Positions 10,103 to 58,219 of a stretch of 64,000 bases of DNA are shown in pieces. This DNA is from Dehalococcoidia bacterium (lineage in GTDB: Bacteria; Chloroflexota; Dehalococcoidia; Lucifugimonadales; UBA3495). Position 1 is the first letter of the stretch, and the number at the start of each line of letters is the position of its first letter. Under the pieces are notes generated by a model. The model saw nothing but the letters and a program-made list of their open reading frames with translations, searched no databases and was not told the origin of the DNA. The stretch covers positions 30,502 to 94,501 of the forward strand of contig PBPE01000036.1 in the NCBI GenBank assembly GCA_002724585.1, in the 5' to 3' direction. The position numbers and the translations under genes are program-made.

Positions 10103-12868
10103 ATGACAATACATTTAATGCTCGATGGTCAGAAAGTTAGTATAAAGGAAGGACAATCAGTACTGGATGTTATCAACGTGTCTGGTACTTTTATCCCTCA
10201 ATTATGTAAAGATCCCGATATGAAACCGATTGGTGCTTGTCGGACATGCATCGTGGAAATAGATGGTATTCGGGGCATGCCAGCATCGTGTTCAACACCT
10301 GCCGTCAACGGTATGGTAGTTTCCACCAACAGCCCTAGTGTCCAACGGATTCGAAAGGGAATATTGGATTTAACTCTTGGTATGGTCGGTGATGGCACAG
10401 AATTAGGTTTGCTTCGACAGGCTTGTGACAAGTATGGCTTGTCTTCTGGCACTTGGGTGGCCAGATATAGGGAAGACACTGATACTAGCAATCCTGTTTT
10501 TGATATCAGTATGGGCGCTTGCATACTGTGCGCCAGATGCGTTAATGCTTGTCAGGATTCACATCAGTTCATTGGTGCCATAGATCATCTGGGGGCTGGG
10601 ACAGAAAGTAGGATTGGGACATTTATGGACAAACCTTTAATAGAGTCTATATGTACGACTTGCGGTCAATGTCTTTCCGTATGTCCAACAGGCGCGATAC
10701 ATCCCAAGTCAAGCTTGCCTAGGCAGAGATCTGGCAAAGAAGCATTACCGGTTTTGAATACCGTAGCTTCAACGTGTCCCTATTGTGGTGTGGGCTGCGG
10801 AATACAAATATCAACTGATGCGGATGAAAATATCGTTGAGGTTTATGATGATCCAGATAATTTGTCTAGCGTAGGGATGTTGTGTGTTAAGGGCAGGTTC
10901 GGTCAGGGATTCGTAACGCACCCCGATAGGTTGAAGGAACCATTAATTCGTCGAGATGGAGTTTTAAAGCAAGCCACATGGGACGACGCTTTAGATTTGA
11001 TCTCTAGTAAGTTGATTAACTACCGAGGTGATTCGTTCGGAACTCTCTGTTCTGCTAAGGCTACTAATGAAGATGGGTATGTGCAACAAAAGTTCACTCG
11101 CCTAGTAATGAAAAGCAATAATATAGATCATTGCACTCGTCTATGCCATTCCCCATCGGTTGAGGCAATGTTGGAGTCTTTAGGCAGTGGAGCGACGAGC
11201 AATTCGTACTCTGATTATGAAGATGCACGCTGTTTGGTAGTAATCGGTTGTGATCCAACTTCTAACCATCCTGTTGCGGCATCGAGGATGCGTAGGGCAA
11301 TAGTCGAACGGGGAGCTAAACTGATTGTCATAAACCCTCGTCGTATAGATATGTGTGATTATGCCGATATTTGGCTTCGGCCTATGCCAGGCACCGACGT
11401 CGCATTACTAAACGGCATCGCTAATGTCATCATAAAAGACGGGTTATTGGATAGTCCTTTTGTGATGGATAGGACTGAAGGTTATGATGATTGGTACAAG
11501 ATTATCGAAGAATATAACCCGAAAAAAGTCGAGGATATTACTGGTATAGCAGAGCAGGATCTGATTGATGCTGCTAGAACGTATGCGAACCCACCTCCGA
11601 CCCGGTCAGGTCCTGGATTAGAAACAGGAGGTTCCTGCCTAATCTGGGGCATGGGCATTACTCAGCACACTAACGGCACCGCAAACGCTCATGGATTACT
11701 CAACCTGGCTTTAGTTTCCGGGCAGATAGGGAAACGTGGGGCTGGCATATCGCCGCTAAGAGGTCAGAATAATGTGCAGGGATGTGGAGATTCAGGTTGT
11801 TTGCCCGATAATTTGCCTGGATATCAGGGTTTGCGCCCTGAATCATTGCGAAAGTTTGAAGATGCTTGGGGGGGGAATCTTCCGAGTACGAAAGGACTCG
11901 TCGTCACTGAAATGGTCGAATCGATTGGAAAATCCGACGGGATTAAGGCCATGTATATTACTGGTGAAAATCCCCTGCTGAGTGAGCCAGATCTCAATCA
12001 TGCAGAAAAAATGTTTGCGCAATTAGATTTTCTTGTCGTTCAAGATATTTTTCTTCACGAAACTGCAGCAATAGCTGATGTGGTATTACCGGCTGTTAGT
12101 TATGCTGAGAAAGATGGGACATTTACCAATAGTGAGAGAAGGGTACAAAGAATTAGAAAGGCGATCAGTCCACTAGGTAAAGGGAGGGCAGATTGGGAAA
12201 TAATTTCTGAATTGGCTGTGAGAGTTAGTGAGAAGTTGGGGCTTGGTTTAGAACACCAGTTCCTTTATGAAAACCCAGAGCAAATATTTGCAGAAATGTC
12301 TGGCCTAACACCGATAATAGCTGGTATAAACTATCAGCGCATTCAGAAATCTGGTATACAATGGCCATGCCCTGACGTTGGTCACCCAGGGACGGAATTT
12401 TTGTATGAAGAGACATTCCCCAGAGGGGATCGTGCTAAATTCGTGGCTTTTGATCAGGGACCTGTTGCTGCTGAGCGTCCCAATAAACGTTTCCCAATCA
12501 TGCTTAATACTGGCAGGATACTTTACCACTGGCATGGAGGGACCATTACTCGTAGGGTAGTTAATTTAATGGCTAGAGCCCCAGAATTGCAGGTAGCAGT
12601 AAGCCCTGCGGATGCTGAGAAGTACGGCCTGTTGCATGGGGAAAAAATTAAAGTAACTTCAAGACGTGGGGTGCTGACCGGGGTAGCCTTGGTTACTGAC
12701 AGAATGCGGGACGGAGAAATCTTTATCCCATTTGTTAAGCTGTCTGAATCGGCAGCTAATTTCTTAACTAATTCTGCTTATGATCCCATGTCTAAGATAC
12801 CTGAGTACAAGGTCTGCGCTGTCAGTATTGAACCCGCATATCAGGGAATATCGGAAACTTCTAGCTAG
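10103..12868 (+). CDS. fdsA: NAD-linked formate dehydrogenase alpha subunit (FdsA/NuoG-like fusion), Cys-type
   Basis: 921 aa. It has an N-terminal NuoG-type 2Fe-2S (CKDPD...CRTC...C) and two ferredoxin CxxCxxCxxxC motifs. It also has a MopB 4Fe-4S (CPYCGVGC...C) and the active-site motif CTRLCHSPSV (Cys-His, TGC at 11144-11146). LRGQNNVQG contains the conserved Arg. Confidence 0.92.
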   Translation: MTIHLMLDGQKVSIKEGQSVLDVINVSGTFIPQLCKDPDMKPIGACRTCIVEIDGIRGMPASCSTPAVNGMVVSTNSPSVQRIRKGILDLTLGMVGDGTELGLLRQACDKYGLSSGTWVARYREDTDTSNPVFDISMGACILCARCVNACQDSHQFIGAIDHLGAGTESRIGTFMDKPLIESICTTCGQCLSVCPTGAIHPKSSLPRQRSGKEALPVLNTVASTCPYCGVGCGIQISTDADENIVEVYDDPDNLSSVGMLCVKGRFGQGFVTHPDRLKEPLIRRDGVLKQATWDDALDLISSKLINYRGDSFGTLCSAKATNEDGYVQQKFTRLVMKSNNIDHCTRLCHSPSVEAMLESLGSGATSNSYSDYEDARCLVVIGCDPTSNHPVAASRMRRAIVERGAKLIVINPRRIDMCDYADIWLRPMPGTDVALLNGIANVIIKDGLLDSPFVMDRTEGYDDWYKIIEEYNPKKVEDITGIAEQDLIDAARTYANPPPTRSGPGLETGGSCLIWGMGITQHTNGTANAHGLLNLALVSGQIGKRGAGISPLRGQNNVQGCGDSGCLPDNLPGYQGLRPESLRKFEDAWGGNLPSTKGLVVTEMVESIGKSDGIKAMYITGENPLLSEPDLNHAEKMFAQLDFLVVQDIFLHETAAIADVVLPAVSYAEKDGTFTNSERRVQRIRKAISPLGKGRADWEIISELAVRVSEKLGLGLEHQFLYENPEQIFAEMSGLTPIIAGINYQRIQKSGIQWPCPDVGHPGTEFLYEETFPRGDRAKFVAFDQGPVAAERPNKRFPIMLNTGRILYHWHGGTITRRVVNLMARAPELQVAVSPADAEKYGLLHGEKIKVTSRRGVLTGVALVTDRMRDGEIFIPFVKLSESAANFLTNSAYDPMSKIPEYKVCAVSIEPAYQGISETSS

Positions 12869-14088
12869 TCCCCTACTGCAGCTGGGGAACTAGTATTGAC
12901 CTTCTGGGGCCACCATGGATCAGGATATTCAGCCCATAGGTTTTTCACGGCAGGCATCACTTCATTGGCGAACAATGTAGTGTTTTTGAGGGTTAGTTCT
13001 TTCGGCATACTGCCTATGTGTAATAAACACATCAAGTGTCCAACTCTGAGCATCTTTGCCGCTTCTACTAATTGTTCACGAACAGTTTCAGGACTGCCAG
13101 CAATTACATGCCCCTGCTCAATAAAATCTTTCCATTCTAGTTCTCCTGCTGCTTTCTGAGCTTCTTCACCTATTTGAGGTCGAATCGATTCTCTGATGGA
13201 ATTCAGCGATCTATAGCCAGGAGCTTCAGCATAAGGAGGGTGTATTCGTAACATTTTGCGGTAGAAGTATTTTACATGCTCTGAATATTCTTGTTCTGCA
13301 GATCGATCAGTCTCTGATACACACACAAGTTGTAAAAAGCCGAGCCTATGAGGATTGTCATCCAGCCCTCTCTCTGATACGCGGTCCCAGAATCCGTTGA
13401 CTACTCTTAATCCTCTGAGATAACCAAAATAACTTAGGTAGCAATAGACGTAGTCCCTATCTAATACCCAGTCCCATGTTTCTAGGCTGCCACTTCCAGG
13501 TATCCAAACTGGTGGATGGGGTTGCTGAAGTGGACGAGGCCATATGTTTACATAACGGAGCTGATTGTATTTACCATTGAATATGAAGGGTTCACGGTTA
13601 CTCCATGCTTTCATGATCAGGTCATGAGCTTCAGAGTGTTTTTCTCGTAACGTAATGGGAGTTTGGCCATATGAAAGTGTAGTGTCCATAGATGTTCCGA
13701 CAGGGAAACCTGCGACTAGACGGCCCTTGCTCATAATATCAAGCATAGCCATCTCTTCGGCCACTCTGACTGGCGGTTGATATAGTGCTAAGCTGTTTCC
13801 TAACACGATCAGGGCGCCGTTTGAAGTAGTTCTGGATAGGACTGAAGCAATCAAGTTTGGCGAAGGCATTAATCCATAAGCGTTATTATGGTGTTCGTTG
13901 ACGCAAACGCCATCGAATCCGACTGTGTCTGCAAATTGGAGCTCTTCCAAGTAGTCATCATAATGATCTTGGCATCTTTCGGGATCAAATAGACTATTGG
14001 GAGCATCTACCCATGCACTGCGATAATTATCCTCAAAATCACTAGGAAGACCTTGGTACGGCATAAGGTGGAAGAAACAGACTTTCAT
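12865..14088 (-). CDS. Luciferase-like flavin-dependent monooxygenase (LLM) paralogue
   Basis: 407 aa. MKVCFFHLMPY..., FDGVCVNEHH and RLVAGFPVG fit the LLM TIM-barrel pattern. GGAGAT SD. Its stop codon overlaps the fdsA stop. Confidence 0.85.
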   Translation of the reverse strand: MKVCFFHLMPYQGLPSDFEDNYRSAWVDAPNSLFDPERCQDHYDDYLEELQFADTVGFDGVCVNEHHNNAYGLMPSPNLIASVLSRTTSNGALIVLGNSLALYQPPVRVAEEMAMLDIMSKGRLVAGFPVGTSMDTTLSYGQTPITLREKHSEAHDLIMKAWSNREPFIFNGKYNQLRYVNIWPRPLQQPHPPVWIPGSGSLETWDWVLDRDYVYCYLSYFGYLRGLRVVNGFWDRVSERGLDDNPHRLGFLQLVCVSETDRSAEQEYSEHVKYFYRKMLRIHPPYAEAPGYRSLNSIRESIRPQIGEEAQKAAGELEWKDFIEQGHVIAGSPETVREQLVEAAKMLRVGHLMCLLHIGSMPKELTLKNTTLFANEVMPAVKNLWAEYPDPWWPQKVNTSSPAAVGD

Positions 14089-14154: not shown

Positions 14155-15798
14155 CTACTCGAGCACAAACCCTTCGTATCCTTTGGCAGCGCATTCGTCT
14201 CGTATTGCCCTCATTGCTGGCGCGCTGTCTGGACTGGTTAACAATACTCGGGCTTTTCCGGGTATATTCGCTCCTACATACCAAGAATTTGCCTCTGCTC
14301 CTTGTGTACGCAAAATTTTAGCCCCATCTTCATTGACGTGCCTAACCCAAGCATCTTCAGATTCTATGGTTGGGTGGATGCGATTATAATTCTTGTCCTG
14401 TACCCAGCGAATGGTTTTTGATACCCAGTCGATCAGTGCTTCCGCTGCTCTTGGAAAATTGCCTACCGAAGCTGAGTTGACTGTAAATAGATTTGGGAAT
14501 CCCGCGCTAGTCACGCCCATAAACGTGCGAGGGCCGCCTGAAAATTTTTCGCTAAGTATCTCGCCTCCAATACCTTGAATGTTGATTTTATTCAGCGAGC
14601 CTGTAACCGCATCATACCCTGTGGCGAATATTAATACATCCAGTTCGTATTCGGATTCTGATGTGAGAACTCCTTTGGAAGTTATCCGTTCTATCGGAGC
14701 TGTTTTCACATCCACCAACAATACATTCTCTTGGTTGTACACTTCATAGTATCCGCTTTCACATGGAAGTCTTTTCGATCCAAACATGTGGTCTTTTGGA
14801 ACCAGCATTTCCGCGATAATCGGATCATAGACACGCTCTCGGATCTTATTGCGCACAAATTCTGCATAGTCTTCATTTGCGGGACCTGGCAACATGACAT
14901 CATAGAAATTTGCGAGCCATTTAGCAAATCCACCCTGTAGCCACAGCCTTTCGTATTGCTGTCTACGTTCTTCGGCTGAGACATCCATCGCTGATCGCGG
15001 ATCGAATTTGTGCATAAATGACCCTGCGCTTTCGCTGCACATACGGAATATTTCAGGGTAATTAGCTTTTATTTGCTTCTGAGTTTCAGCGTCAATCGTA
15101 CTATTTCTTAAAGGTGCACAGAAGTTAGGGGTCCTCTGAAATACTGTTAAATGACCCACTTCTTTTGCTATTTCGGTGATCAGTTGCACGCCGCTAGCGC
15201 CTGTTCCAATTACCCCCACTCGCTTCCCGGATAGGTTGATTCCTTCCTTAGGCCATCGGCCTGTGTGGCACCAAGTTCCTTGGAAACTATGGATACCTTC
15301 GAAATTTGGTACGTAGCCTGCGGATAATATTCCTACAGCGGTGATCAAGAACTTTCCTTTGGCTTTGTACCCGTCTTCTATTGATATTTCCCATAAATTC
15401 TCGTTTTCGTTAAACTTTGCAGAGGATACTCGGGAACTGAGCCGTATGTGCTTACGGAGGTCGAATTTGTCAGCGACGTAGTTCAAATAGCGTTCATTTT
15501 CTGGTTGAGCAGAATAATGCTCTTTCCAGTCCCACTCTTGGAGAAGCTCTTCTGAGAAAGAATATCCGTAGGTATAACTCTCGGAATCAAACCGACAACC
15601 TGGGTACCTGTTCCAATACCAGGTGCCCCCAACTCCATCACCTTCTTCGAATGATTGGACAGTTAATCCGAGCTCTCGAAGCTTATATATTGCGTATAGC
15701 CCGGTAACGCCAGCACCGATGACTATTACATCATAGTAATTCATGTCGGAACTATAATGAGTAGTCGGCTCAGATGATGTTTGTTGAGATGTGCTCAT
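14155..15798 (-). CDS. Type I Baeyer-Villiger monooxygenase (cyclohexanone-monooxygenase-like, FAD/NADPH)
   Basis: 547 aa with the BVMO fingerprint FQGTWCHTGRWP (FxGxxxHxxxWP). The two Rossmann motifs are VIGAGVTG and VIGTGASG. Confidence 0.9.
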   Translation of the reverse strand: MSTSQQTSSEPTTHYSSDMNYYDVIVIGAGVTGLYAIYKLRELGLTVQSFEEGDGVGGTWYWNRYPGCRFDSESYTYGYSFSEELLQEWDWKEHYSAQPENERYLNYVADKFDLRKHIRLSSRVSSAKFNENENLWEISIEDGYKAKGKFLITAVGILSAGYVPNFEGIHSFQGTWCHTGRWPKEGINLSGKRVGVIGTGASGVQLITEIAKEVGHLTVFQRTPNFCAPLRNSTIDAETQKQIKANYPEIFRMCSESAGSFMHKFDPRSAMDVSAEERRQQYERLWLQGGFAKWLANFYDVMLPGPANEDYAEFVRNKIRERVYDPIIAEMLVPKDHMFGSKRLPCESGYYEVYNQENVLLVDVKTAPIERITSKGVLTSESEYELDVLIFATGYDAVTGSLNKINIQGIGGEILSEKFSGGPRTFMGVTSAGFPNLFTVNSASVGNFPRAAEALIDWVSKTIRWVQDKNYNRIHPTIESEDAWVRHVNEDGAKILRTQGAEANSWYVGANIPGKARVLLTSPDSAPAMRAIRDECAAKGYEGFVLE

Positions 15799-18893: not shown

Positions 18894-19895
18894 CTAGATT
18901 AGGACCGGTTCAGTGTTCTTAGTATATATTTGCAGTCTGCCTCTAGTTGAATCTAAGACCACTACCTGCCCATCTGTATTTACTTTCACAGCGGTAGGAT
19001 GCGAGAAATTCTTATCAAAATCGCTACTGTGTGTTATAGCGAGTTGGCGTTGTCTTATCATATCTGGATTGGATATCATTTTATCTTTGCCCCACTGGGA
19101 TAACATATGATCCCCAGTTAGCTGAGTTATGAACCGTCCATCTGGAGCTAAGACTTGTATCCTGTCGTTCAACCAGTCAGACACGTAAATGTCGCCATCT
19201 TTATCTACGGACACACTGTTAGGACGATTAAACTGTCCTACGGCAGTTCCTGGTGTTCCGAATGTAGCCTGCCATTTCCCTGACTGATCAAATTGTTGAA
19301 TCCGGTCGTTTCTCCAGTCAGTTACGTATATATTTCCTGAGCTGTCCAGTCCAATTCCCCAAGGCATATTAAATTGTCCTGACCCATCTCCTGATTCGCC
19401 AAAGCTGCTTTCGAATTGGCCATCTAGACTAAATTTTTGCACCCTGTTGTTTCTGCTGTCAGACACGTAGATACTACTACCTGAAATAGCGAGACCGGCG
19501 GGACCGTCTAATTGTCCTTGTGCCGATCCTTGTTCACCCCATTTGCTAACAAATTCGCCATTACTATCGAACACTGTTATTCGATTGAGCCATTCATCGG
19601 AGATGTAAATGTTCTCGTCCTTATCTAAAGCGATTGACGAAGGCCAGATAAACTGACCGTCTCCTTCACCGTAAGAACCAAACTCAGTGACGTATTCTTC
19701 GTTTAATGTGCAGACGGTTACTCTAACACCGTCTGGACGATTTTCATAAGCCCGATTAATTACGTAAACGATGTCATCGGCGCCCAATGCCATGTCTACA
19801 GGATTTCGAAATCCTGTACCTGCAAACTCGTTTCTTCCAACTGAATGACTGTAAGAAAATGTTCTGTCGGTGAGACCAAATAAATGGGTGCTCAT
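18894..19895 (-). CDS. NHL-repeat beta-propeller protein
   Basis: 333 aa with six recurring blades of about 47 aa (..G.F..P.gia.d..GniYVsD..N.RIQ.F...G). No N-terminal signal peptide. Confidence 0.85.
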   Translation of the reverse strand: MSTHLFGLTDRTFSYSHSVGRNEFAGTGFRNPVDMALGADDIVYVINRAYENRPDGVRVTVCTLNEEYVTEFGSYGEGDGQFIWPSSIALDKDENIYISDEWLNRITVFDSNGEFVSKWGEQGSAQGQLDGPAGLAISGSSIYVSDSRNNRVQKFSLDGQFESSFGESGDGSGQFNMPWGIGLDSSGNIYVTDWRNDRIQQFDQSGKWQATFGTPGTAVGQFNRPNSVSVDKDGDIYVSDWLNDRIQVLAPDGRFITQLTGDHMLSQWGKDKMISNPDMIRQRQLAITHSSDFDKNFSHPTAVKVNTDGQVVVLDSTRGRLQIYTKNTEPVLI

Positions 19896-19978: not shown

Positions 19979-21133
19979 TTATAAGAAGTTGACTTTAGTA
20001 AAGTTTCCAGCTATCGGAACTGGATCTATATGAAGCCAGTCTTCGAGTATAGTGCTGTAGACCTCACGGAAATCCATATTGTGCTCTAAGTTTCCACCTT
20101 CGATCAATTTATCCTGATCCAATGATGGGTAGTCACCGTAGAAACCACCTTTAACGTGTTCCCCGATAGCGAATGCTACGCTTGCAGCACCATGATCTGT
20201 CCCTGATCCATTGTCACCCACACGACGACCGAATTCTGAGAACATAAGCAACGTTACATTATCCATTGCGTCATGTCCTCGTAGATCATCAATGAAAGTT
20301 TCAACATTTGCTGATACGTCTGTCCATAATCCCGAATGTGCTTGAGCTTGACTAGCATGAGTATCGAAGCCGTTGTACGGAGAGGTGGTATAGAGCACCC
20401 TTGTCCCGAAACCAGCTAGATGAGTCTGGGCAATATTTTTCATGTATTGTCCAACCGCGGTTGCAGAATATTCGACGTTTGAACTGTACATTCCTGGTGC
20501 GGTAGCTAAGATATCTGCCCCTTTTAGCGCATCAGTACCTGTTCGTCTAATGTAATCCAATGCGTATCCACTACCAATCGTGGGACTGTACATTCGTCCA
20601 AATACATCTAATGCTTCTGTTCGTTGGTCTTCTCCTTGAATTCCTGTGAGCAATCCGTATGTCTCGAGGTCACCCACTGAAGCCACTGGAACACCTTCCT
20701 TAGCAAGGGCTCTGGGTAGACCTCTTCCGAAGTTAACACCAGTAAGCACGTTTTCTGCGCTTGGATCTAACTCTTTAATTGCTTGGCCTAACCAACCCTC
20801 ATTGCCGATTTTGTCGGGTTCGCAGGTGTGCCAAATATCCATGGATCGGAAGTGGGAGTAGCTAGGATTGGGGTAACCGATACCTAGGAAGATGGCCATT
20901 TTACCTTCTTCCCAAAATCTAATTAATGGTCCCATGCTAGGGTGGAATCCATAGCCTGTCTCTTTTCCTGTTGCTGGGTCCTTTAGAGGGATAATCTGTT
21001 CTTCAGGAATCCCTAGATTTGGACGAAAATCTCTATACAAACCATTATTAAATGGGATGACGGTATTTAGCCCGTCATTTCCGCCGGATAGAGAAAGTAC
21101 CGCTAATACGTTGTCTTTTTTATTAGAGACCAT
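19979..21133 (-). CDS. DUF1501 (sulfatase-fold) family protein
   Basis: 384 aa with SLSGGNDGLNTVIP near the N-terminus and FSEFGRR...NGSGTDHG near the C-terminus, both DUF1501 hallmarks. GGAGG SD. No Tat leader. Confidence 0.85.
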   Translation of the reverse strand: MVSNKKDNVLAVLSLSGGNDGLNTVIPFNNGLYRDFRPNLGIPEEQIIPLKDPATGKETGYGFHPSMGPLIRFWEEGKMAIFLGIGYPNPSYSHFRSMDIWHTCEPDKIGNEGWLGQAIKELDPSAENVLTGVNFGRGLPRALAKEGVPVASVGDLETYGLLTGIQGEDQRTEALDVFGRMYSPTIGSGYALDYIRRTGTDALKGADILATAPGMYSSNVEYSATAVGQYMKNIAQTHLAGFGTRVLYTTSPYNGFDTHASQAQAHSGLWTDVSANVETFIDDLRGHDAMDNVTLLMFSEFGRRVGDNGSGTDHGAASVAFAIGEHVKGGFYGDYPSLDQDKLIEGGNLEHNMDFREVYSTILEDWLHIDPVPIAGNFTKVNFL

Positions 21134-21163
21134 TACTACCTCCGTTAATTTCTTGTCTAATTT

Positions 21164-22582
21164 TTAACCAAACTGGTATTCAGATGTCGCGGCTATCATT
21201 TGTAGCATTTCTCCAGAGCGACGGACGAAATCTTGCTGCTCTGTGTCTGATTTATGTGTTAAATCGCCTTCGCGTTCTGCATGAGAGACTAGTTCTCCGT
21301 AAGTCTCGTCAGTTACCTGAAGCTGTCCGACTAGGTCTAGACATCCATCCACGAATTGTTTAGGAGAGATTGTTTCTCCTTCTGACATTAGGCGGTCGAC
21401 AATACCTTTTACGCCAGGCAGATTTGTTTGACCTAGATAGTCCGACGCAAAATTAATTCGTTCTACTAAGGTCCCACTGTCGATCCATTCGTGACCTGTA
21501 TGCCATCCCTCAACTGTTGGTGGGTTCATTAAATCCATACCCATGTACTTAGGCTCTTGGGATATCTCGAACAGGCCCGGCTTTATATCTTGGTGGTCAC
21601 CTACTAGTCGAAGTGTGCTCACAACCATTTCTGCTGGGTTTTTGACCTTGGTATAGCGAGCATTTTTGAATGATTCTGAATTGAATAACACTCGAAGCAT
21701 GGCCGTTATATCGTAATTTGATTCGAAATACGCAGCCTCTAGTGCTTCTATTAGTTCGGGATCTTTGGGGGGTGTTTGCCTCCAAGAAGGTACGGGAACT
21801 TCGTCTGCCACGAAATAGTTGTACAGGTGTCTTGCTACGAATCTTGCCGTGGCGGGCTGACCGCATACCATGTCAAGGATATCTTCGCCATTCCAATTAC
21901 CTGTTTGGCCTAGAAATGTCTTGTCAGATTCATCGTGGTCAGCCGGGTCAAATCTGAATTCCCAAGCACTTCTTCCGTATGGGAAAGGAGGATATGATGG
22001 GGCGATGTTCCACCCTGTGAACGCTCGAGCACATGCCTTTACATCGTCTTCACTGTAATTGAATTCTTCATCTTTTCCGACACCCATCGAGAACAATTCC
22101 AATAGCTCTCTGCCGTAGTTCTCATTGACTGCGGTTTTGTGACTTTCTGAGTTGTCGAGATAATAGATCATTCCGGGGCTTGTTGAAAGCAGCATTAGTA
22201 GGTCTCGGAAGTTACCCATGCCGTTCTCTCTGAACATCTTGATCATTAATCCCATTTCTTGTCCGCTATCTATTTTGCTATGGCCTGCACAGAAAATCAT
22301 GTGCCAGAATAAGGCCACTTTTTCTTGCAGCTGCCTAGGGTTGTTGATCATGTAGTACATCCATTGCTGCACATTGGTTTCTATGGCGGCTGGTTCGTTG
22401 TAAGCGGGCTGGTACCTGAATAGTAGATCTTCTTCAATGCCTGGATGATCGTTTGGATTCAATAATTCCTCAACTGTGGATTCGTATCCTTGAGCTGCTC
22501 GTGATTCTACTTCGGCTCTACTAGCACCAAATCCAGCGCGGCGTAGCAAATGTGTCATTAACGCGATGTCATTGTTAGCCAT
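21164..22582 (-). CDS. DUF1800 family protein
   Basis: 472 aa with HLLRRAGFGA and NENYGRELLELFSMGVG, both DUF1800 hallmarks. It is the usual genomic partner of DUF1501. GGAGGAG SD. Confidence 0.85.
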   Translation of the reverse strand: MANNDIALMTHLLRRAGFGASRAEVESRAAQGYESTVEELLNPNDHPGIEEDLLFRYQPAYNEPAAIETNVQQWMYYMINNPRQLQEKVALFWHMIFCAGHSKIDSGQEMGLMIKMFRENGMGNFRDLLMLLSTSPGMIYYLDNSESHKTAVNENYGRELLELFSMGVGKDEEFNYSEDDVKACARAFTGWNIAPSYPPFPYGRSAWEFRFDPADHDESDKTFLGQTGNWNGEDILDMVCGQPATARFVARHLYNYFVADEVPVPSWRQTPPKDPELIEALEAAYFESNYDITAMLRVLFNSESFKNARYTKVKNPAEMVVSTLRLVGDHQDIKPGLFEISQEPKYMGMDLMNPPTVEGWHTGHEWIDSGTLVERINFASDYLGQTNLPGVKGIVDRLMSEGETISPKQFVDGCLDLVGQLQVTDETYGELVSHAEREGDLTHKSDTEQQDFVRRSGEMLQMIAATSEYQFG

Positions 22583-28371: not shown

Positions 28372-28555
28372 AAATCATCTCCCGTAATTTCACGTTATAT
28401 TTAGAATTGATGTTCTCTCTTGATGGGTTAAGTGAATACTATCTCCTGTTGTGGAAGAGGTCAAAAAGAGCATCAGATGTCCGATTGACCCACTCTTTGG
28501 TATGCAATACACTCCCATTGGATTTAACGGCAAGATGCCATAGAAGGTGAAACTT

Positions 28556-29698
28556 ATGCGTTTCGGTATGTTTTATGAATTGCAAATGCCAAAACCATGG
28601 GGTCCAGATGCGGAATATAACACTTTATGGCAGGCAGTTGAGCAAGTAACGTACGCTGAGGAGATGGGGTTCGAACATGTATGGCTAGTTGAACACCATT
28701 TTCTGACCGAGTTTGCCCATTCGAGTGCGCCAGAAGTTACCTTGGCAATCATGGCTGAACGAACATCGAAAATGCGCTTAGGATTTGGTGTCGTTCTATC
28801 TCCAGTACATCACCCGTTGCACGTGGCTGCTCGGGTCGCCACCTTGGATATATTTAGCAATGGCCGTGTCGATGTAGGAGTAGGCCGTACGAAAGGACCA
28901 TATCAGATTACTCCATTTGGTGCCGACGTATCACAGACTCAGAGCATGATGACCGAGATGCTCGATTGTCTACCCAAAATGTGGACCCAAGAAGTCTTTT
29001 CCCATGAAGGTAAGCATTGGAGTATTCCCCCTAGAGAGGTAATTCCAAAACCAATACAGAAACCTCATCCACCGCTATGGATGGCGTGTACTCAGGAAGA
29101 TACTTTTAGGATGGCAGGTGATTTAGGGTTAGGTTGTCTAGTCAATACACTGGGTGGAACAGATAAGACTAGGTCATTAATAGATGCTTATTACGATGCC
29201 ATAAAGCATGCTAAACCGGTAGGCCATTTTTTAAACAAACAGGTAGTTGCTTCAACAATCGGGTTCTGTGATGAGAATGGTAAAAAAGCTATAGAAAAAG
29301 GAGCAGATGTTGCTAGCTGGTATCTTAATCAGAGTAAGCAACGATTTGCTTTAGAATGGGCAGGAGTAGATCCTGATGGAGTGCCACCTGAGTATCAATT
29401 CTATGTTAGTGGGGGAGCTGTACGTGGAGGTGGTCCTTCACAAGATCCTCAACAACAAAGCGCGCCATCACAAGATGATTTGCTCGCCGGCGGAGGATAT
29501 TGTGTTGGAAACCCTGATGATTGCATTAGGGTCATTGAAGAGTTTGAATCAATGGGTGTTGATGAAGTAATGCCTATTTTTCAAGCTGGTCATGCGACCC
29601 ATAAAGAAGTGATGAATTCCATCAAATTGTTCGGTAAATACGTAATACCTCATTTCCAGCAGAAAGATCAAAAATCGATACCTACAGCCGGAAAGTGA
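28556..29698 (+). CDS. Luciferase-like flavin/F420-dependent oxidoreductase (LLM) paralogue
   Basis: MRFGMFYEL..., FEHVWLVEHHF and RVDVGVGR fit the LLM pattern. I chose the ATG at 28556 (AAGGTG SD 6 nt upstream) over the longer GTG at 28547. Confidence 0.85.
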   Translation: MRFGMFYELQMPKPWGPDAEYNTLWQAVEQVTYAEEMGFEHVWLVEHHFLTEFAHSSAPEVTLAIMAERTSKMRLGFGVVLSPVHHPLHVAARVATLDIFSNGRVDVGVGRTKGPYQITPFGADVSQTQSMMTEMLDCLPKMWTQEVFSHEGKHWSIPPREVIPKPIQKPHPPLWMACTQEDTFRMAGDLGLGCLVNTLGGTDKTRSLIDAYYDAIKHAKPVGHFLNKQVVASTIGFCDENGKKAIEKGADVASWYLNQSKQRFALEWAGVDPDGVPPEYQFYVSGGAVRGGGPSQDPQQQSAPSQDDLLAGGGYCVGNPDDCIRVIEEFESMGVDEVMPIFQAGHATHKEVMNSIKLFGKYVIPHFQQKDQKSIPTAGK

Positions 29699-30629: not shown

Positions 30630-31286
30630 ATGATGACTCAAAAAGCTGTTATTGTTAACGATCTATGTAAGACTTATGCGAATGCGCCTGTTCTATCTCG
30701 TGTAAATGTGGAGATAGACTGGGGAGAGTTAGTCGTTTTATTTGGGTCTAACGGTGCCGGTAAAACCACTTTTCTACGCGTTTTATCTACAAGAGTCAGG
30801 CCTGATAATGGAACTATCACTGTAGCTGGATACGATAGTAGAACTAAACCTAACGAACTTAGAAGATCGATCGGTGTAGTTGGTCACCAAGGTTTACTGT
30901 ACGATGATCTTACAGCATCTGAAAACCTGAAGTTTTATGCAAGGATGTATGGTTTGAAGGACGTACAGACATGTGTAAGCAGATGTCTTGAATTAGTAGG
31001 GTTGGAAAGCAAATCTGGTAGTAAGGTGCGCACCTTATCACATGGTATGCAGAAAAGACTGGGAATCGCTAGAGCCTTATTGCATGACCCAATGGTTTTG
31101 CTCTTAGATGAACCAGAGTCTGGTTTGGATGTTTACTCAAGAGATAATTTAAAAGAGATATTATTTAAATGGATAGAGAGAGGTCGTACCGTAGTAATGA
31201 CAACACACAGTGTTGATATCGGTTCAGGTTGGGCCACGAGAACACTAATGTTGTCTGGCGGGCAGATTAACGATGTCCAAACCTGA
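30630..31286 (+). CDS. ccmA: Cytochrome c maturation (System I) ABC ATPase CcmA
   Basis: Walker A GSNGAGKTT, signature LSHGMQKR and Walker B LLLDEPESGLD. It lies immediately upstream of ccmB and ccmC. Confidence 0.85.
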   Translation: MMTQKAVIVNDLCKTYANAPVLSRVNVEIDWGELVVLFGSNGAGKTTFLRVLSTRVRPDNGTITVAGYDSRTKPNELRRSIGVVGHQGLLYDDLTASENLKFYARMYGLKDVQTCVSRCLELVGLESKSGSKVRTLSHGMQKRLGIARALLHDPMVLLLDEPESGLDVYSRDNLKEILFKWIERGRTVVMTTHSVDIGSGWATRTLMLSGGQINDVQT

Positions 31287-31306
31287 GCTAATAAACGGCT
31301 TTTGTA

Positions 31307-32011
31307 ATGTGGGCACTGGAGATAAGGCTTTCGTTACTAATGTCTAAGAATATACAGTCTATTTTTATAATGATTAAAAAGGACCTTTTATTGGAATTTA
31401 GAGGCAAGGATATACTTGTATCAGTCCCAATATTTGGTTTTTTGTTGATAGTCTTATTCAATTTTGCTTTAGACGTTTCTCCAAATATATCTAATCATGT
31501 AGCACCGGGCATACTATGGGTCTCCTTCGCTTTCGCAGGCATATTGACAATGAATCGAGCGTTTGTTAGAGAACTGGAACAGGGTGGTCTGGAAGGTTTA
31601 TTACTGTCTCCGATTAGCCGCGATGCTATCTTCATCAGCAAGGTTCTTAGCAGTTGTCTATTTATGTTCGTGGTGGAGATAGCTTTATTATTGGCTTTGA
31701 CAATCATGATGAACATTTGGATGTTTTCTATAGTATTAGTCGTGACAGTTTTGTTGACCACTTTGGGATTTACCACGCTGGGAACTTTATTTTCTGCTAT
31801 AGCTGTACAGACAAGATCTAGAGAAGTAATGCTTCCAATACTGTTTTTTCCTATGGTTATACCAATATTAATAGCGGCAGTAGAGGTAACGTCGGAAGTT
31901 ATCGCGGGTCAATTCATTGGAATAGGAAAATGGCTGCCTTTTATAATAATATTTGACGCTTTGTTTTTGCTAATATGTCCTTGGCTGTTTGGAACCGTGA
32001 TGCAGGAGTGA
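31307..32011 (+). CDS. ccmB: Heme exporter membrane protein CcmB
   Basis: Polytopic membrane protein with FVRELEQGGLEGLLLSP, a CcmB hallmark. The true start may be the ATG at 31340. Confidence 0.8.
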   Translation: MWALEIRLSLLMSKNIQSIFIMIKKDLLLEFRGKDILVSVPIFGFLLIVLFNFALDVSPNISNHVAPGILWVSFAFAGILTMNRAFVRELEQGGLEGLLLSPISRDAIFISKVLSSCLFMFVVEIALLLALTIMMNIWMFSIVLVVTVLLTTLGFTTLGTLFSAIAVQTRSREVMLPILFFPMVIPILIAAVEVTSEVIAGQFIGIGKWLPFIIIFDALFLLICPWLFGTVMQE

Positions 32012-32017
32012 TGGATT

Positions 32018-32725
32018 TTGTCTAACCTAGGAATAAAGAATATTCAAACGAAAATATCGTATGTTTTAGCGGCTCTGTGTACTATTTTGATGATCATCAA
32101 TTTGTATCTTATATTCTGGGTTGCGCCACTCGATGTTGTACTAGGGCACATACAGAAAATATTTTACATACATGTTCCTATAGCCGCGATGTCATTCCTA
32201 GCGTTTTTTCTGGTGTTTGTATTTAGCATTATTTATCTGGTAAAACGTTCGGAGCATTGGGATAGACTGGCTTATGCTGCAGGAGAAGTCGGAGTAGTAT
32301 TTGTTTCAGTGACCTTGTTAACAGGAGTGGTCTGGGCGAAACCTGTCTGGGGTGTTTGGTGGACATGGGAGCCTCGTCTAACAACGACGTTAATTCTGTG
32401 GCTTATATATATAGCATACATTATGGTTAGATCATACGCCCCAAATAGATCGCAAGGGTCTTTATATGCAGCAGCTATAGGCATTATAGGATTTATTGAC
32501 GTCCCGATAGTTTATTATTCCGTACAATGGTGGCGTTCCATACATCCTTCCGCTGTTGTGGGGCCATTTGCAGAATCGGGCGCCCTGGAACCAATAATGG
32601 CACAGATATTGTTAGTATCACTAGTTGCATTTACATTACTGTTTGTTCTGTTATTTAATCAGAGGATATCTGTAAAAAAACAAGAAGATCTTCTAGCTAA
32701 GACTTTGGAGTTTGAAAACAAATAA
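32018..32725 (+). CDS. ccmC: Heme lyase/exporter subunit CcmC
   Basis: 235 aa with the tryptophan-rich WWD-type motif WGVWWTWEPRLT plus flanking conserved His residues. Confidence 0.9.
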   Translation: MSNLGIKNIQTKISYVLAALCTILMIINLYLIFWVAPLDVVLGHIQKIFYIHVPIAAMSFLAFFLVFVFSIIYLVKRSEHWDRLAYAAGEVGVVFVSVTLLTGVVWAKPVWGVWWTWEPRLTTTLILWLIYIAYIMVRSYAPNRSQGSLYAAAIGIIGFIDVPIVYYSVQWWRSIHPSAVVGPFAESGALEPIMAQILLVSLVAFTLLFVLLFNQRISVKKQEDLLAKTLEFENK

Positions 32726-32756
32726 GGATCTACACATCAGATGAAAGAGACGAGAA

Positions 32757-32939
32757 ATGCCAACTGTGATTTTACAAATAGGTTCCCCTTCGCCTAATAC
32801 TGGTTTTTTGTTTGTAGCTTTTGCTATTGTAGCTATAGCTTTCTGTGGCTATTCGGCGTTAATCATTAGGCGGCAACGTGACACAACAAAGAAACTAAAG
32901 GAAATCAAACAGTCCTCAAATCATTCTACCCCAGAGTAA
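32757..32939 (+). CDS. ccmD: CcmD-like small single-pass membrane protein
   Basis: 60 aa with one TM helix followed by a basic tail (IIRRQRDTTKKLK). Its position after ccmC matches CcmD architecture. No sequence-specific motif is available. Confidence 0.5.
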   Translation: MPTVILQIGSPSPNTGFLFVAFAIVAIAFCGYSALIIRRQRDTTKKLKEIKQSSNHSTPE

Positions 32940-32966
32940 TTCTGAGACTGACTTATAAGTAGTACA

Positions 32967-33668
32967 TTATTCTTTGATTAGTCGAGCCGCAGCTATTAGC
33001 TGGTGGTTAGCAGAGTCCCAGATATCGGCCATCTTTTCAGTAAGGTGGGATTCTTCTGGGTCAGTGTAAGTTTCATCGTTTAAACATTGTTCTATACCAC
33101 TACAAAAACTATCTATTGGCACTGTGAATTGGTTGGGTGACAATTCTCGATGTTGAAATAAATTGGATTTGGCGCTCCGATACTTTTTAGCTGCAGCAAT
33201 CTCATATTGTGTCTCTTCTTTATGATCATAATGCCACTGCTTTACGTTCAAGTGATAAAGCTCACGCCTTTTCTCAGCTAATTCTGTGGCACTATAGCGT
33301 AAATCTGACATTGCACTAATCAAGTTGCCATATTTATTCTCTGGTTCGATTTTCTCAGGTTGATCCTCGTGCTGCGAATTATTATTGTTTCTAGAAAATA
33401 AATGGATTCTTGGAAGATAGCTGATTGCTATCAATGGTACTGCTATCAGGCTAATTTCAGGAAATGTATGTCTGGCTAGCAGGATGGTAGAGACTAGAAG
33501 AACTATCAGTCCCCCGTATGTTATTGCGTTAACTGCTGCTGGGATGAATATCGGATGGTTGTCCATTAACATGGTTACTCCCCAGAGAGTAATTGCAAGA
33601 CCGACTATATTGAGTATTACTGTTATCGCATTGTTGTTCATCACCCCTCCACACCGGCCCATCGCCAA
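32967..33668 (-). CDS. Hypothetical membrane protein (about 3 TM helices plus a soluble C-terminal domain)
   Basis: 233-aa ORF on the opposite strand between ccmD and ccmE. It has hydrophobic N-terminal helices and no recognisable motif. Confidence 0.5.
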   Translation of the reverse strand: MAMGRCGGVMNNNAITVILNIVGLAITLWGVTMLMDNHPIFIPAAVNAITYGGLIVLLVSTILLARHTFPEISLIAVPLIAISYLPRIHLFSRNNNNSQHEDQPEKIEPENKYGNLISAMSDLRYSATELAEKRRELYHLNVKQWHYDHKEETQYEIAAAKKYRSAKSNLFQHRELSPNQFTVPIDSFCSGIEQCLNDETYTDPEESHLTEKMADIWDSANHQLIAAARLIKE

Positions 33669-33829
33669 TTAGTAACATAGCATGCAAATGGATAATCTTC
33701 TAGGAATGTAGTTTGCAGATTGTAGGGATTTTATAGCCAAGTGGTCTACTACAAAGCACTCATATGGTATGCTTAATATGTGGTGAGCCAATGCTAATGT
33801 TTTGGGTCTGATATGGAGTTGGATGCAGA

Positions 33830-34336
33830 TTGATTGAACATGATGATATTAAAAGTGATGTGAGGAATCCTAAAACCTCTAAAGCCACTTTTTTTCGTTT
33901 GGGGATAATAGGGTTTGTATTAGTAGTTGGAATTGCTTACATGGTATACGCAGCATTTCCTGGTAATACGCTTTATTTTCTAACAGTTAGTGAGTTTATG
34001 GAAAAAGAAGAGTATCAAGATGGGCGTGTATTGAGAGTATCTGGCAAACTGCTAGATGGGTCATTCCATCGGCCTAAGGGTTCTACCAGCGCTAACTTTG
34101 CTTTAATTGATTCTCTAAACAATGCTGATCCAGGATTGGAAGCGCGATATGTTGGTGTAATGCCAGATTTATTTTTTAATCCCCATTCTGAAATTATTCT
34201 TCAAGGATCGTATGGTATGGACGAAGTATTCGAAGCTGAAACTGTGCTCGTAAAATGTCCGTCGAAATATCAATCTATGGAAGAGGAATATAGTGAAGAT
34301 TATATGTACGATGAGGAGAAGAGTACGAAGAGTTAA
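33830..34336 (+). CDS. ccmE: Heme chaperone CcmE, variant type with CxxxY heme-binding motif
   Basis: It has an N-terminal TM anchor and an OB-fold core (RVLRVSGKL...MPDLF). The site aligned to E. coli LAKHDENY reads LVKCPSKY, so Cys replaces the heme-binding His. Confidence 0.85.
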   Translation: MIEHDDIKSDVRNPKTSKATFFRLGIIGFVLVVGIAYMVYAAFPGNTLYFLTVSEFMEKEEYQDGRVLRVSGKLLDGSFHRPKGSTSANFALIDSLNNADPGLEARYVGVMPDLFFNPHSEIILQGSYGMDEVFEAETVLVKCPSKYQSMEEEYSEDYMYDEEKSTKS

Positions 34337-34363
34337 TCATTAAGGGTTCAAGGTTTTGAAAAA

Positions 34364-34389
34364 ACAGCCCCGATATTTGTCGGGGCTGT
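34364..34389. terminator. Bidirectional intrinsic terminator
   Basis: aaaaa-ACAGCCCCGA-tatttg-TCGGGGCTGT-ttttgttt. It is a 10-bp GC-rich stem flanked by an A-run and a T-run, between convergent ccmE and korB. Confidence 0.8.
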
Positions 34390-34401
34390 TTTTGTTTAAA
34401 A

Positions 34402-52178: not shown

Positions 52179-52754
52179 TTGAAGTGCCCGTATTGTGCTT
52201 CTACAGAATCAAAAGTAACGAATTCCCGTGAAGCTGAAAGCGGAACTCGCAGAAGACGGGAATGCCAGTCGTGTTACGCACGATTTACCACCTATGAAAG
52301 AATTCAGGTGGCAGGTTTGGTAGTTTTGAAGGAAGACGATCGTCGGGAAGAATTCAATAAAGAGAAGTTGATAGAAGGCATAAGAAAAGCATGTACCAAG
52401 CGACCGATATCTCCGAAGGCGATAGAGAAGCTGGTTGAGGAGATAGAAGGAGAATTGTATGGCAGTGGCCAATGGGAGGTTTCTTCTGAAAATATTGGGG
52501 AAATAGTCATGGAAAGGCTAAGAAGGCTGGATCGGGTTGCTTACATCCGATATGCCAGTGTGTATCGAGACTTTACAGACATTGAGAGCTTTGAAAGGGC
52601 GGTGAAGGATTTGCGGGAGGATGAAACACGGCTCTCCTTGCCGCGATTAGGCAGTAAGAGCGCGCATCGGAATATAGATGCCGGTTCCAGAAAGCCTACT
52701 AAATATGGAAATAAAACGCCCATGTTAAAAGGACAAGTGAACTTATCTGCTTAA
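52179..52754 (+). CDS. nrdR: Transcriptional repressor NrdR (zinc ribbon + ATP-cone) with an extended C-terminal tail
   Basis: MKCPYC...CQSC zinc ribbon followed by an ATP-cone (VLKEDDRREEFNKEKL...). TTG start with AAGGTG SD. It is 191 aa, versus the roughly 150-160 aa I recall as typical. Confidence 0.93.
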   Translation: MKCPYCASTESKVTNSREAESGTRRRRECQSCYARFTTYERIQVAGLVVLKEDDRREEFNKEKLIEGIRKACTKRPISPKAIEKLVEEIEGELYGSGQWEVSSENIGEIVMERLRRLDRVAYIRYASVYRDFTDIESFERAVKDLREDETRLSLPRLGSKSAHRNIDAGSRKPTKYGNKTPMLKGQVNLSA

Positions 52755-52787
52755 GATAGTAGAGAGTTCTGAGGAGATATTAAACTG

Positions 52788-53030
52788 ATGAGTAGTAGTG
52801 TCCAATACTCGGCTCTCGCAAGGCTGTTAAGCCACAATAATAGAGCACATGATTTAGAAGAGATCATGAAGCAAAGTTTGGTCCCAACCGAGTATCCATA
52901 TCAAGTGGATTTGGAATATCAAGAGTTGCCTATCAATCCTTTCGCTGAACTCCAGGATGAATTTGAAAAAGAAGTTAGAGCTAGTTTAGTGACATGTTGG
53001 CTAGCTATCCCAGAAACCGACGAAGAGTAA
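52788..53030 (+). CDS. Hypothetical acidic protein (80 aa)
   Basis: ORF with GAGGAG SD located 33 nt after nrdR. No recognisable motif. Confidence 0.45.
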   Translation: MSSSVQYSALARLLSHNNRAHDLEEIMKQSLVPTEYPYQVDLEYQELPINPFAELQDEFEKEVRASLVTCWLAIPETDEE

Positions 53031-53201
53031 AGAATTAGAAATGTATCCATGCAAACAAGTCTAATGACAACGGCTTAAGGAAAATAATCGTGAAACATGG
53101 TAAAACTTGAATGATATATCAAGTGTTACATGTGACCAGTTATTGACGAATAACTAAGTCGTAAACCCATCAAATCTGCAGGATACAAGCAAGGGGTTAT
53201 T

Positions 53202-53702
53202 TTGGAAAGACAAATAAAATACATTGTGCAAGTACACTGCGAACCTCTACCCATTGGGTTAGAGGGCACTATAGTCAATTTTCTGAGTGATTATTTTAAT
53301 GTGACCGGGTGTTCTGTCGATAATCAAGGTATGATACTCGAGCTCAGATCAAGCCATGCGATAGCTTATGGCGCAATCAAAGACTTGGCGGATTTGATAG
53401 TAGAAGTTTTGAACATGAATGGTATAGAGTTCAGGCAAGGTGTTATCAATCGAGTTGAACAAGGTTACGCGCAATTTGTATACAAGGTAGTTAATTCGGA
53501 AGTCATTGCAAACCATATACTCGGATTGTGCAGGTCCTGGAGTTATATAGTAGGTAATGCAGTTAAAGAATTAATAGCGAAGATGTTCGGTGGGACTCGA
53601 CTCGTGCCTGAGATGTATTTCCATGGCAATGTTTTGTTGGATGTCATGCTGTCGACTCGAGTCAAACAGCTTTCTACAGATGGAGTGATAGACCGAAGTT
53701 AA
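53202..53702 (+). CDS. Hypothetical protein (166 aa)
   Basis: ORF with a TTG start and AAGGGG SD, lying between nrdR and nrdJ. No recognisable motif. Confidence 0.5.
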   Translation: MERQIKYIVQVHCEPLPIGLEGTIVNFLSDYFNVTGCSVDNQGMILELRSSHAIAYGAIKDLADLIVEVLNMNGIEFRQGVINRVEQGYAQFVYKVVNSEVIANHILGLCRSWSYIVGNAVKELIAKMFGGTRLVPEMYFHGNVLLDVMLSTRVKQLSTDGVIDRS

Positions 53703-53755
53703 TATACCTAACAGTTAATACAGAGTGATTGAATTAGTTGAGGGGGGTTGTTGAA

Positions 53756-56164: not shown

Positions 56165-56224
56165 CTATGCTTAGGTCTGGATCTATGCACATAGCATCGG
56201 TTAGAGTCCTTGTTAGGTATACAT

Positions 56225-57235
56225 ATGGTTGATAAGCCTGCTATAGCCATAACAATGGGAGACCCTTGTGGAATCGGGCCAGAAGTAGTTGTAAAGGCTT
56301 TATCTGACCGTAACGTTTATTCCACTTGTCGTCCTATCGTAATAGGTAATGTTATTGCTATGGAAGCGGCAGTTCGTAGCTCTCAGAGTTCAATGACAAT
56401 TGTGGAGCCAACTGACTTAACTATAGCTGGGTCCGACAGTTCATCTATAGACGTTGTAGACATACATAATTTAAATCCAGAGGATATTACTATAGGCCAA
56501 ATAAGTATCCCCTGTGGGAAAGCTGCAATGGAATGGGTTACTAAAGCTGGAGAGATGGCTTTATCTGGCCTTATTGATGGCATAGCCACTGCACCACTGA
56601 ATAAAGAAGCAGCAAGTTTGGCTGGATATCAATCTATTGGTCATATGGAGCTTCTACAGGAATTATCTGGATCTAAAACTGTCGCTACTATGCTCCTTGC
56701 AAAAAACTTGAGGGTTGTGCACTTGACTACACATAGGTCCTTGAAGCTAGCATGCGATTACGTTAAAAAAGATAGGATATTAGAGTTTCTAGACTTAACG
56801 GATCAGAGCTTCAAGAAATGGGGTTTCCTAGATCCTAGGATAGCTGTTGCTGCGTTGAATCCTCATGGTAGTGACGGAGGACTCCTCGGTAACGAAGAGG
56901 CAGAAGAGATTGCCCCTGCAGTAGAACAAGCACGTAGCAAAGGGATCAATGCGACTGGTCCGGTTCCCGCTGATATTGTTTTCCATCAGGCGATTAATGG
57001 TCAATATGACACCGTTTTGTGCATGTACCATGACCAAGGCCATATACCGGTAAAAGTGTATGGTTTTGAGGAAAGCATCACTGCTAATCTAGGATTGCCC
57101 TTTGTTAGAACATCCGTAGATCATGGCACAGCCTTTGATATAGCCGGAAAGGGAGTTGCTGATCATACCAGCATGTTGGAGGCGATAAGATTGGCTGTTG
57201 GTTTATCGCTTGGTAATGGGCTATCCGATTTTTGA
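56225..57235 (+). CDS. pdxA: PdxA family 4-hydroxythreonine-4-phosphate dehydrogenase
   Basis: MVDKPAIAITMGDPCGIGPEVV aligns to the PdxA N-terminus, and MYHDQGHIPVK holds the metal-binding His residues. The ATG at 56225 is preferred over the TTG at 56210. Confidence 0.88.
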   Translation: MVDKPAIAITMGDPCGIGPEVVVKALSDRNVYSTCRPIVIGNVIAMEAAVRSSQSSMTIVEPTDLTIAGSDSSSIDVVDIHNLNPEDITIGQISIPCGKAAMEWVTKAGEMALSGLIDGIATAPLNKEAASLAGYQSIGHMELLQELSGSKTVATMLLAKNLRVVHLTTHRSLKLACDYVKKDRILEFLDLTDQSFKKWGFLDPRIAVAALNPHGSDGGLLGNEEAEEIAPAVEQARSKGINATGPVPADIVFHQAINGQYDTVLCMYHDQGHIPVKVYGFEESITANLGLPFVRTSVDHGTAFDIAGKGVADHTSMLEAIRLAVGLSLGNGLSDF

Positions 57236-57382: not shown

Positions 57383-57409
57383 CTTCTAAACGAAAAGTAG
57401 GCTGTTAAC

Positions 57410-58213: not shown

Positions 58214-58219
58214 ATTCTA

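Follow-up and report, generated by a model that had tools for sequence, protein, structure and literature searches.

A 64,000-nucleotide stretch of a Dehalococcoidia bacterium genome (assembly GCA_002724585.1, contig PBPE01000036.1, positions 30,502 to 94,501), referred to as a whole as the window, carries a set of cytochrome c maturation (ccm) genes. In it, ccmA, ccmB, ccmC and ccmD lie contiguously on the plus strand, and ccmE follows beyond an opposite-strand gene that we call ORFx (Table 1). The heme chaperone CcmE has a cysteine at the position of the heme-binding histidine of E. coli CcmE, and the region is probably the heme-delivery module of a System I* pathway, vertically inherited and typical of the SAR202/Dehalococcoidia Chloroflexota. 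System I* is said to have been defined by Allen et al. in 2006, and Goddard et al. reportedly put it to the test in Desulfovibrio desulfuricans in 2010; Stevens et al. reviewed it in 2011 (PMC3601427). The combination of a Cys-type CcmE with ccmABCD is the normal state of the SAR202 clade and a known variant, of which this individual locus was undescribed. A previous reading made from the letters of the window alone (the sequence-only reading) had also recognized a variant of System I whose CcmE is of the CxxxY (Cys) type, with no ccmF, ccmG or ccmH nearby, and this part stands: the CxxxY motif occupies the H130...Y134 position of the E. coli protein, with CcmA-D encoded alongside. What that reading built on it, namely an extension of the variant, a peculiar split form, the absence of CcmH as its mark and a lateral transfer to be tested, is not supported as stated.

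The assignment of CcmE rests on family, alignment and structure. The protein scores 77.4 bits against PF03100 (curated cutoff 24.6) and stays below the cutoffs of the His-type NCBIfam CcmE equivalogs (best 59.9 vs 126). A membrane anchor at the N-terminus is followed by an OB-fold and an acidic tail at the C-terminus, and the TTG start codon has GGAG just upstream. HMMER comparisons covered the CcmE proteins of E. coli, Shewanella and D. vulgaris, and the alignments to PDB entries included 1j6q. With phmmer, VLVKCPSKY of the window protein aligned to VLAKHDENY of E. coli CcmE (8ce8_E, 1sr3), which pairs Cys143 with His130 and Tyr147 with Tyr134; Cys143 also aligned to the Cys of D. vulgaris CcmE (2kct). 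The cysteine had been noticed in the sequence-only reading, and it lies at the histidine position in alignments with both HxxxY and CxxxY proteins. In the AlphaFold (AF2) model (predicted local distance difference test score, pLDDT, 74), a helix spans residues 17-42 and the strands residues 50-142, so that Cys143 comes immediately behind the final strand of the OB-fold. In the PDB, Foldseek matched this model best to structures of CcmE: 8ce8_E, 1j6q, 1lm0, 1sr3 and 2kct. Since there is no His at the structural heme-binding position, the Cys assignment stands.

This CcmE is far from unique. An identical protein is encoded on contig DFQG01000095.1 of a metagenome-assembled genome (MAG, GCA_002377655.1) and on Tara Oceans marine contigs. 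At E < 1e-3, 830 protein clusters match it; KCPSKY is present in 119 of the best 120, and the named ones among these come from Chloroflexi or Dehalococcoidia. In public databases, the Dehalococcoidia/SAR202 copies that carry the CcmE annotation number in the hundreds. A relative is encoded by 282 species-representative genomes, the best 80 of which are all Dehalococcoidia/SAR202/Chloroflexota MAGs, closed chromosomes among them. Among the 88 CcmE locus copies that we fetched, 86 read VKCPSKY and the other two VKCPSKF. An exhaustive HMMER search of 50%-identity cluster representatives returned 1278 relatives, and in the nearest 150 of them identity falls smoothly from 62% to about 30%; 140 of these 150 have the Cys and one has a His, which places the window protein deep inside a large System I* CcmE family. 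The only taxa given in the cluster-member names are 'Chloroflexota' and 'Ca. Hydrothermales'. By this conservation, purifying selection is strong. According to Stevens et al. 2011, the carriers of a Cys-type CcmE include Chloroflexi and Firmicutes in addition to archaea and Desulfovibrio, and most such variants have the CPSKY motif (PMC3601427). As Chloroflexi are thus already listed for System I*, the locus is no new extension of the variant.

Some individual copies deserve mention. The sole His among the nearest 150 representatives belongs to a protein (P0268, L099 697-1164) that is 48% identical to the window CcmE and has the heme site VRHPDRF, with His and Phe for Cys and Tyr. Its gene lies on a high-GC contig of 1.8 kb between an FAA-hydrolase gene and the gene for the alpha subunit of 2-oxoacid:ferredoxin oxidoreductase (POR), with no ccmABCD upstream; it may represent a reversion to His within the Cys-type clade. 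The MAG JACZUF01 has two Cys-type ccmE copies on separate contigs (L061, L075), and on the closed chromosome OZ244885.1 (L017) ccmE has neither ccmB nor ccmC within 10 kb.

The partner proteins support the same assignment. CcmC aligns with E. coli CcmC (7f02_C) at 3e-25, keeps the equivalents of both heme-ligand histidines, H60 and H184, and scores 147 against TIGR01191 (cutoff 186). Its WWD motif, WGVWWTWEPRLT, has a Glu aligned to D126 of E. coli, as the sequence-only reading had pointed out, and the retention of an acidic residue at this position, together with both His ligands, speaks in favour of the heme-delivery interpretation. In E. coli CcmC, heme crosslinks to three WWD residues, of which D126 is one, and D126 also ranks among the most conserved ones in Proteobacteria (PMC12077264). 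At this position, 63 of 80 clade CcmC proteins have Glu, 13 have Thr and 4 have Asp, all in combination with a CPSKY CcmE. The 13 loci with Thr read WNAWWLWTPRLT or WGAWWLWTPRLT, so that the acidic side chain is lost at the heme-contacting position. A more distant Cys-type locus (L095) combines Cys-CcmE with the canonical Asp in CcmC, WGIWWSWDARLT. The idea that the Glu is an obligatory compensatory partner of Cys-CcmE is ruled out by these variants: Asp and Thr coexist with Cys-CcmE, and the Glu is therefore not required by it. The WWD Glu is instead a lineage trait of this branch and the majority state in the clade. The window CcmC shares 42% identity with the CcmC encoded in a System I* operon on the Metabacillus plasmid pB218 (Bacillota), in which the D126 position is also a Glu, WNAWWVWEDPRL; against E. 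coli CcmC it reaches about 92 bits.

Among the remaining genes of the cluster, the ccmA orthologues adjoin ccmB in relatives as they do here. The window ccmD reaches 21.8 bits with TIGR04391, just below the cutoff of 24. This CcmD_alt model does, however, recognize each of the 18 orthologues tested from the clade (best E 4.8e-13), and on this ground we identify the 60-aa open reading frame (ORF) as ccmD. Pfam and NCBIfam annotation thus bears out the contiguous, co-oriented ccmA, ccmB, ccmC and ccmD-like genes of the sequence-only reading.

Table 1. Features of the ccm region (window coordinates) and ORFx homologues (coordinates of the respective locus)
Feature	Position	Strand	Description	Evidence
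ccmA	30630-31286	+	ATPase subunit of the CcmAB ABC complex	PF00005 4.6e-30; TIGR01189 137.5 bits (cutoff 131.6)
ccmB	31307-32011	+	Membrane subunit of the ABC complex	PF03379 1.7e-33; TIGR01190 1.2e-17 (below equivalog cutoff)
ccmC	32018-32725	+	Heme-handling WWD-domain protein	PF01578 8.9e-33; TIGR01191 4.5e-43
CcmC WWD motif	32348-32383	+	Glu codon 32369-32371
ccmD	32757-32939	+	60-aa single-pass membrane protein, CcmD_alt family	TIGR04391 1.4e-4
ORFx	32967-33641 (ATG, 224 aa) or 33668 (TTG, 233 aa)	-	Membrane protein without known family
ccmE	33830-34336	+	Cys-type (System I*) heme chaperone	PF03100 1.1e-21
CcmE heme-binding motif C-P-S-K-Y	34256-34270	+	Cys143-Tyr147; Cys codon 34256-34258
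Bidirectional intrinsic terminator	34360-34397		Between the convergent ccmE and POR beta-subunit genes	Predicted -31.2 kcal/mol
ORFx homologue, L009	4874-5599
ORFx homologue, L010	9141-9824
ORFx homologue, L014	2393-3091
ORFx homologue, L031	7431-8099
ORFx homologue, L097	10001-10675
ORFx homologue, L098	711-1385

The systems of E. coli, D. desulfuricans and Methanosarcina acetivorans suggest by analogy how these components would act. CcmC and CcmD would bring heme to the external side of the membrane, where the WWD domain would hold it between the two conserved histidines. Membrane-anchored CcmE would dock there, and Cys143 of the CPSKY motif would bond a heme vinyl group covalently, presumably as a thioether, with Tyr147 later serving as axial ligand. 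CcmA, together with CcmB, would then hydrolyse ATP to free holo-CcmE. This would deliver the heme to a synthetase of the CcmF type, encoded at another site of the genome, for attachment to CxxCH apocytochromes. In D. desulfuricans, the Cys-type CcmE forms a covalent bond with heme and sustains the maturation of c-type cytochromes, and the Desulfovibrio ccm operon functions in E. coli without CcmH or CcmG (PMC3601427). In the M. acetivorans CcmE, the equivalent Cys120 is needed for the formation of both holo-CcmE and holo-cytochrome (PMC9084895).

Several observations weigh against this interpretation of the region. The window CcmC has Glu in place of the heme-contacting Asp of the WWD motif. 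The window encodes no c-type cytochrome, its sole CxxCH belonging to ribosomal protein L31. Moreover, neither the 64-kb window nor the ~10 kb of the source contig that come next contain a ccmF, and hidden Markov models (HMMs) based on CcmC and CcmF detected no such gene closer than 10 kb to ccmE in any of the more than 90 Chloroflexota loci tested. Because a ccmF of the clade was not located elsewhere either, the last step of the pathway is one that we infer.

The search for the missing genes was broad. Within the window, Pfam annotation covered most large ORFs (1-49076 and 52179-64000), and motifs, a clade CcmC HMM and a CcmF HMM made from 120 real CcmFs (positive control 1087 bits) were scanned over its whole length. 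None of these scans yielded a ccmF, ccmG, ccmH or ccdA gene, in agreement with the sequence-only reading for the first three, and the one WWD-type motif is that of CcmC. Past the 3' end of the window, the source contig contains only housekeeping genes. The linkage survey comprised 1.76 Mb, up to 10 kb from each ccmE, with CcmE identities of 37-90%: besides 82 SAR202-type loci, it took in a locus from Hydrothermales and more distant loci of the Cys type, with identities of 53%, 43% and 37%. No CcmH-like ORF was present in the window or in any clade locus, nor was there a consistently linked thioredoxin. With the CcmF of the Metabacillus plasmid System I* as a probe, the best 120 hits were all from Bacillota and none from Chloroflexota, and tblastn against plasmids gave no Chloroflexota CcmF record. 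The SAR202 papers and their supplements do not list ccm genes. A scan of JGI metagenomes for a Glu-variant CcmF (WGGxWxWEPxEN) returned only four contigs (L100-L103), all of high G+C and with WGGxWxWEPVEN. In one of them, the CcmF gene adjoins a His-type CcmE (AKHDERY). Given the high G+C and this neighbour, we consider these CcmFs Proteobacteria-like and reject them as the SAR202 protein.

One way to read these results is that the clade has CcmABCDE but no CcmF, so that holo-CcmE(Cys) serves an unrecognized synthetase or, alternatively, periplasmic heme delivery or detoxification. We regard this as very improbable, even though ccmF is never linked to ccmE in the loci surveyed and the Bacillota probe retrieved no Chloroflexota protein among its best hits. 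Unlinked ccm genes are normal for System I*, as in M. acetivorans, where they occupy four loci (PMC9084895), and a probe whose best 120 hits are all from Bacillota could not reach distant CcmFs. In addition, holo-CcmE is known for no role besides delivery to CcmF, and the tight conservation of CPSKY favours this standard role. Still less probable is the more specific notion that SAR202/Dehalococcoidia are devoid of any CcmF-family synthetase and transfer the CcmE heme to apocytochromes or another acceptor via an unrecognized protein, with ORFx as one candidate partner. Since dispersed ccm genes are normal for System I*, ccmF is expected elsewhere in the genome, and by this analogy it is very probably encoded there. 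The absence of CcmH, which belonged to the original description of the variant and which the sequence-only reading took as its mark, is not a defining feature, since CcmH is still present in about a third of System I* carriers (PMC3601427); nor does the lack of ccmH in 64 kb bear on the genome as a whole.

We could also compare the order of the genes in relatives. Across 82 of them, ccmABC(D) and ccmE are co-directional in 48, convergent in 15 and divergent in 11, and an ORFx homologue stands between them in 4; in one, ccmE is alone, and three loci are truncated. A stand-alone ccmE is thus ordinary in the clade (about 40% of relatives are convergent, divergent or separated), and the split form is not the peculiarity that it had seemed from the window alone. 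Unrelated genes have entered other clusters as well: a methyltransferase-like pair lies between ccmE and ccmD in one relative (L030 10566-12335), and small ORFs lie between ccmB and ccmA in another (L011 13491-14185). Such insertions suggest that the ccm locus tolerates passengers.

The neighbourhood itself is conserved. The genes adh_short, POR alpha and beta, TopA, XerC, DHquinase and EF-P recur as flanking genes across the clade, and the synteny (adh_short ... POR, TopA, XerC, EF-P) is kept in relatives down to 53% CcmE identity. At 43% (L095), the POR genes still stand beside ccmE, and at 37% (L094), the upstream FAA hydrolase is the sole remaining neighbour. The G+C content of the ccm region (0.39-0.41) is close to that of the remaining window. 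The shared flanking genes and the matching G+C argue for vertical inheritance with local rearrangement rather than for recent transfer. A recent lateral acquisition from archaea or sulfate-reducing Deltaproteobacteria, which the sequence-only reading had raised, could be envisaged because the Cys-type CcmE was first described in these groups (PMC3601427) and because inter-domain transfers of ccm genes have been inferred (PMC9084895). It is nevertheless extremely unlikely in view of the conserved neighbourhood, the 282 species representatives with a relative, the unremarkable G+C and the smooth gradient of identity among the nearest 150 cluster representatives. A transfer in the distant past, with the Chloroflexota ancestor as recipient or as donor, may still have taken place.

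The gene that separates ccmD from ccmE in the window, a minus-strand ORF as the sequence-only reading had described, is conserved in a small group. Homologues occupy the same slot in the same orientation at six further loci (Table 1), with identities of 78-80%, 55% and 34%; since they keep slot and orientation, ORFx is a real gene. Only 7 homologues were found among 5.8 billion proteins. ORFx is confined to the ccmD-ccmE gap, on the opposite strand, of one marine SAR202 subclade, which always has it there. The protein is predicted to have 2-3 transmembrane helices near its N-terminus and, at the C-terminus, a conserved bundle of four helices with the invariant pattern QWH..H.EET...EI.A.K.YR, and neither Pfam, NCBIfam nor the PDB gave a significant match.

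This restricted position invites the suggestion that ORFx is a lineage-specific Ccm accessory protein or regulator, for example a substitute for CcmH or CcmI, and that the cluster is functionally ccmABCD-ORFx-ccmE and not an interrupted operon. At seven loci, whose CcmE proteins are 57-90% identical to that of the window, it occurs solely between ccmD and ccmE, and it is a membrane protein whose conserved soluble helical domain has invariant His, Glu and Cys positions. However, it is missing from most of the clade and from all other System I* organisms examined, it is transcribed against the ccm genes, and it resembles neither CcmH, CcmI nor CcmG, nor any known family or structure. As other relatives carry unrelated insertions in their clusters, a position kept by descent is the simpler explanation, and an accessory function seems unlikely. 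We therefore treat ORFx as a passenger and not as a known Ccm component; an old insertion of this unrelated but conserved membrane-protein gene would have split ccmE from ccmABCD.

Downstream, ccmE runs directly into a strong terminator, as the sequence-only reading had noted. It consists of an A-run, a 14-bp GC-rich hairpin with the stem arms AAAAAACAGCCCCGA-loop-TCGGGGCTGTTTTTGTTT, and a T-run, and its predicted folding energy (z = -5.9) was equalled by none of 200 shuffles. The gene would thus form a separate transcription unit, closed by a terminator that works in both directions. A simple scan for consensus terminators missed this element, the strongest terminator of the region, which was found by folding, and the negatives of that scan are for this reason untrustworthy. 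A scan for consensus promoters in the surroundings of ccmE was of no help, as shuffled sequence gave more matches, and Rfam revealed no known RNA element in the window. In several relatives, a zf-HC2 anti-sigma factor gene lies directly downstream of ccmE on the opposite strand (L007 10618-10896, L008 10796-11074, L092 10539-11477), in the last case alongside an ECF sigma factor; these neighbours hint at envelope-stress-linked regulation near the locus.

The locus can be compared with three known systems. With E. coli System I (CcmABCDEFGH; 7f02, 8ce8) it shares the CcmA-E architecture, the two CcmC histidines with the WWD domain, and the membrane anchor, OB-fold and Tyr134 of CcmE. It differs in having Cys for His130 and Glu for D126, in lacking a single ccmA-H operon, and in scoring below the cutoffs of the NCBIfam equivalog models for CcmB, CcmC and CcmE. 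It resembles described System I* loci in having CcmA, B, C and D without a linked ccmH or ccmG, and Chloroflexi are listed carriers. In Desulfovibrio and on a Bacillaceae plasmid, however, a single operon, ccmE-F-(H)-...-ABCD, has ccmF next to ccmE, whereas no SAR202 locus examined has a ccmF within 10 kb, and ccmE there is often on the strand opposite to ccmABCD. The archaeal system of M. acetivorans (Gupta, Shalvarjian and Nayak 2022, PMC9084895) has the same CXXXY type of CcmE, with the Cys required for holo-CcmE. That streamlined machinery has its ccm genes distributed over several loci, lacks CcmH and CcmI, and has CcmF split into CcmF1 and CcmF2. Archaea also lack CcmD, in contrast to the SAR202 clade, which keeps a CcmD_alt-family gene.

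Complete System I* operons were also noted on plasmids of Bacilli. The Metabacillus sp. B2-18 plasmid pB218 (L091, NZ_CP088246.1 182781-189757) carries ccmE[KCPSKY]-ccmF-ccmH-x-x-ccmABCD-tlpA, and the Cytobacillus firmus plasmid NZ_CP107028.1 has a System I* operon as well. Bacilli normally use System II, from which a plasmid-borne spread of the Cys-type system would follow.

The rest of the window contains typical SAR202 and housekeeping genes according to Pfam, including AFOR, DnaK, ClpXP and FtsZ. We found three luciferase-like flavin monooxygenase paralogues (8941-10086, 12865-14088 and 28547-29698) and a flavin-binding monooxygenase of the Baeyer-Villiger type (14155-15798); the expansion of such monooxygenase paralogues is a hallmark of SAR202. 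An adjacent DUF1501/DUF1800 gene pair (19979-22582, minus strand) lies beside a gene for an NHL-repeat beta-propeller protein (18894-19895).

For the biology of the abundant marine SAR202 bacteria, these results indicate the use of the Cys-type System I*, which was already known, and on that ground they matter little. Stand-alone ccmE genes are ordinary in the SAR202 clade, and ccmF is unlinked throughout the loci surveyed. At the same time, the clade provides a large natural set of sequences for the Cys-type chaperone and its CcmC partner, including Asp, Glu and Thr at the heme-contacting position of the WWD motif, and these variants bear on the chemistry of making and breaking the Cys-heme bond.

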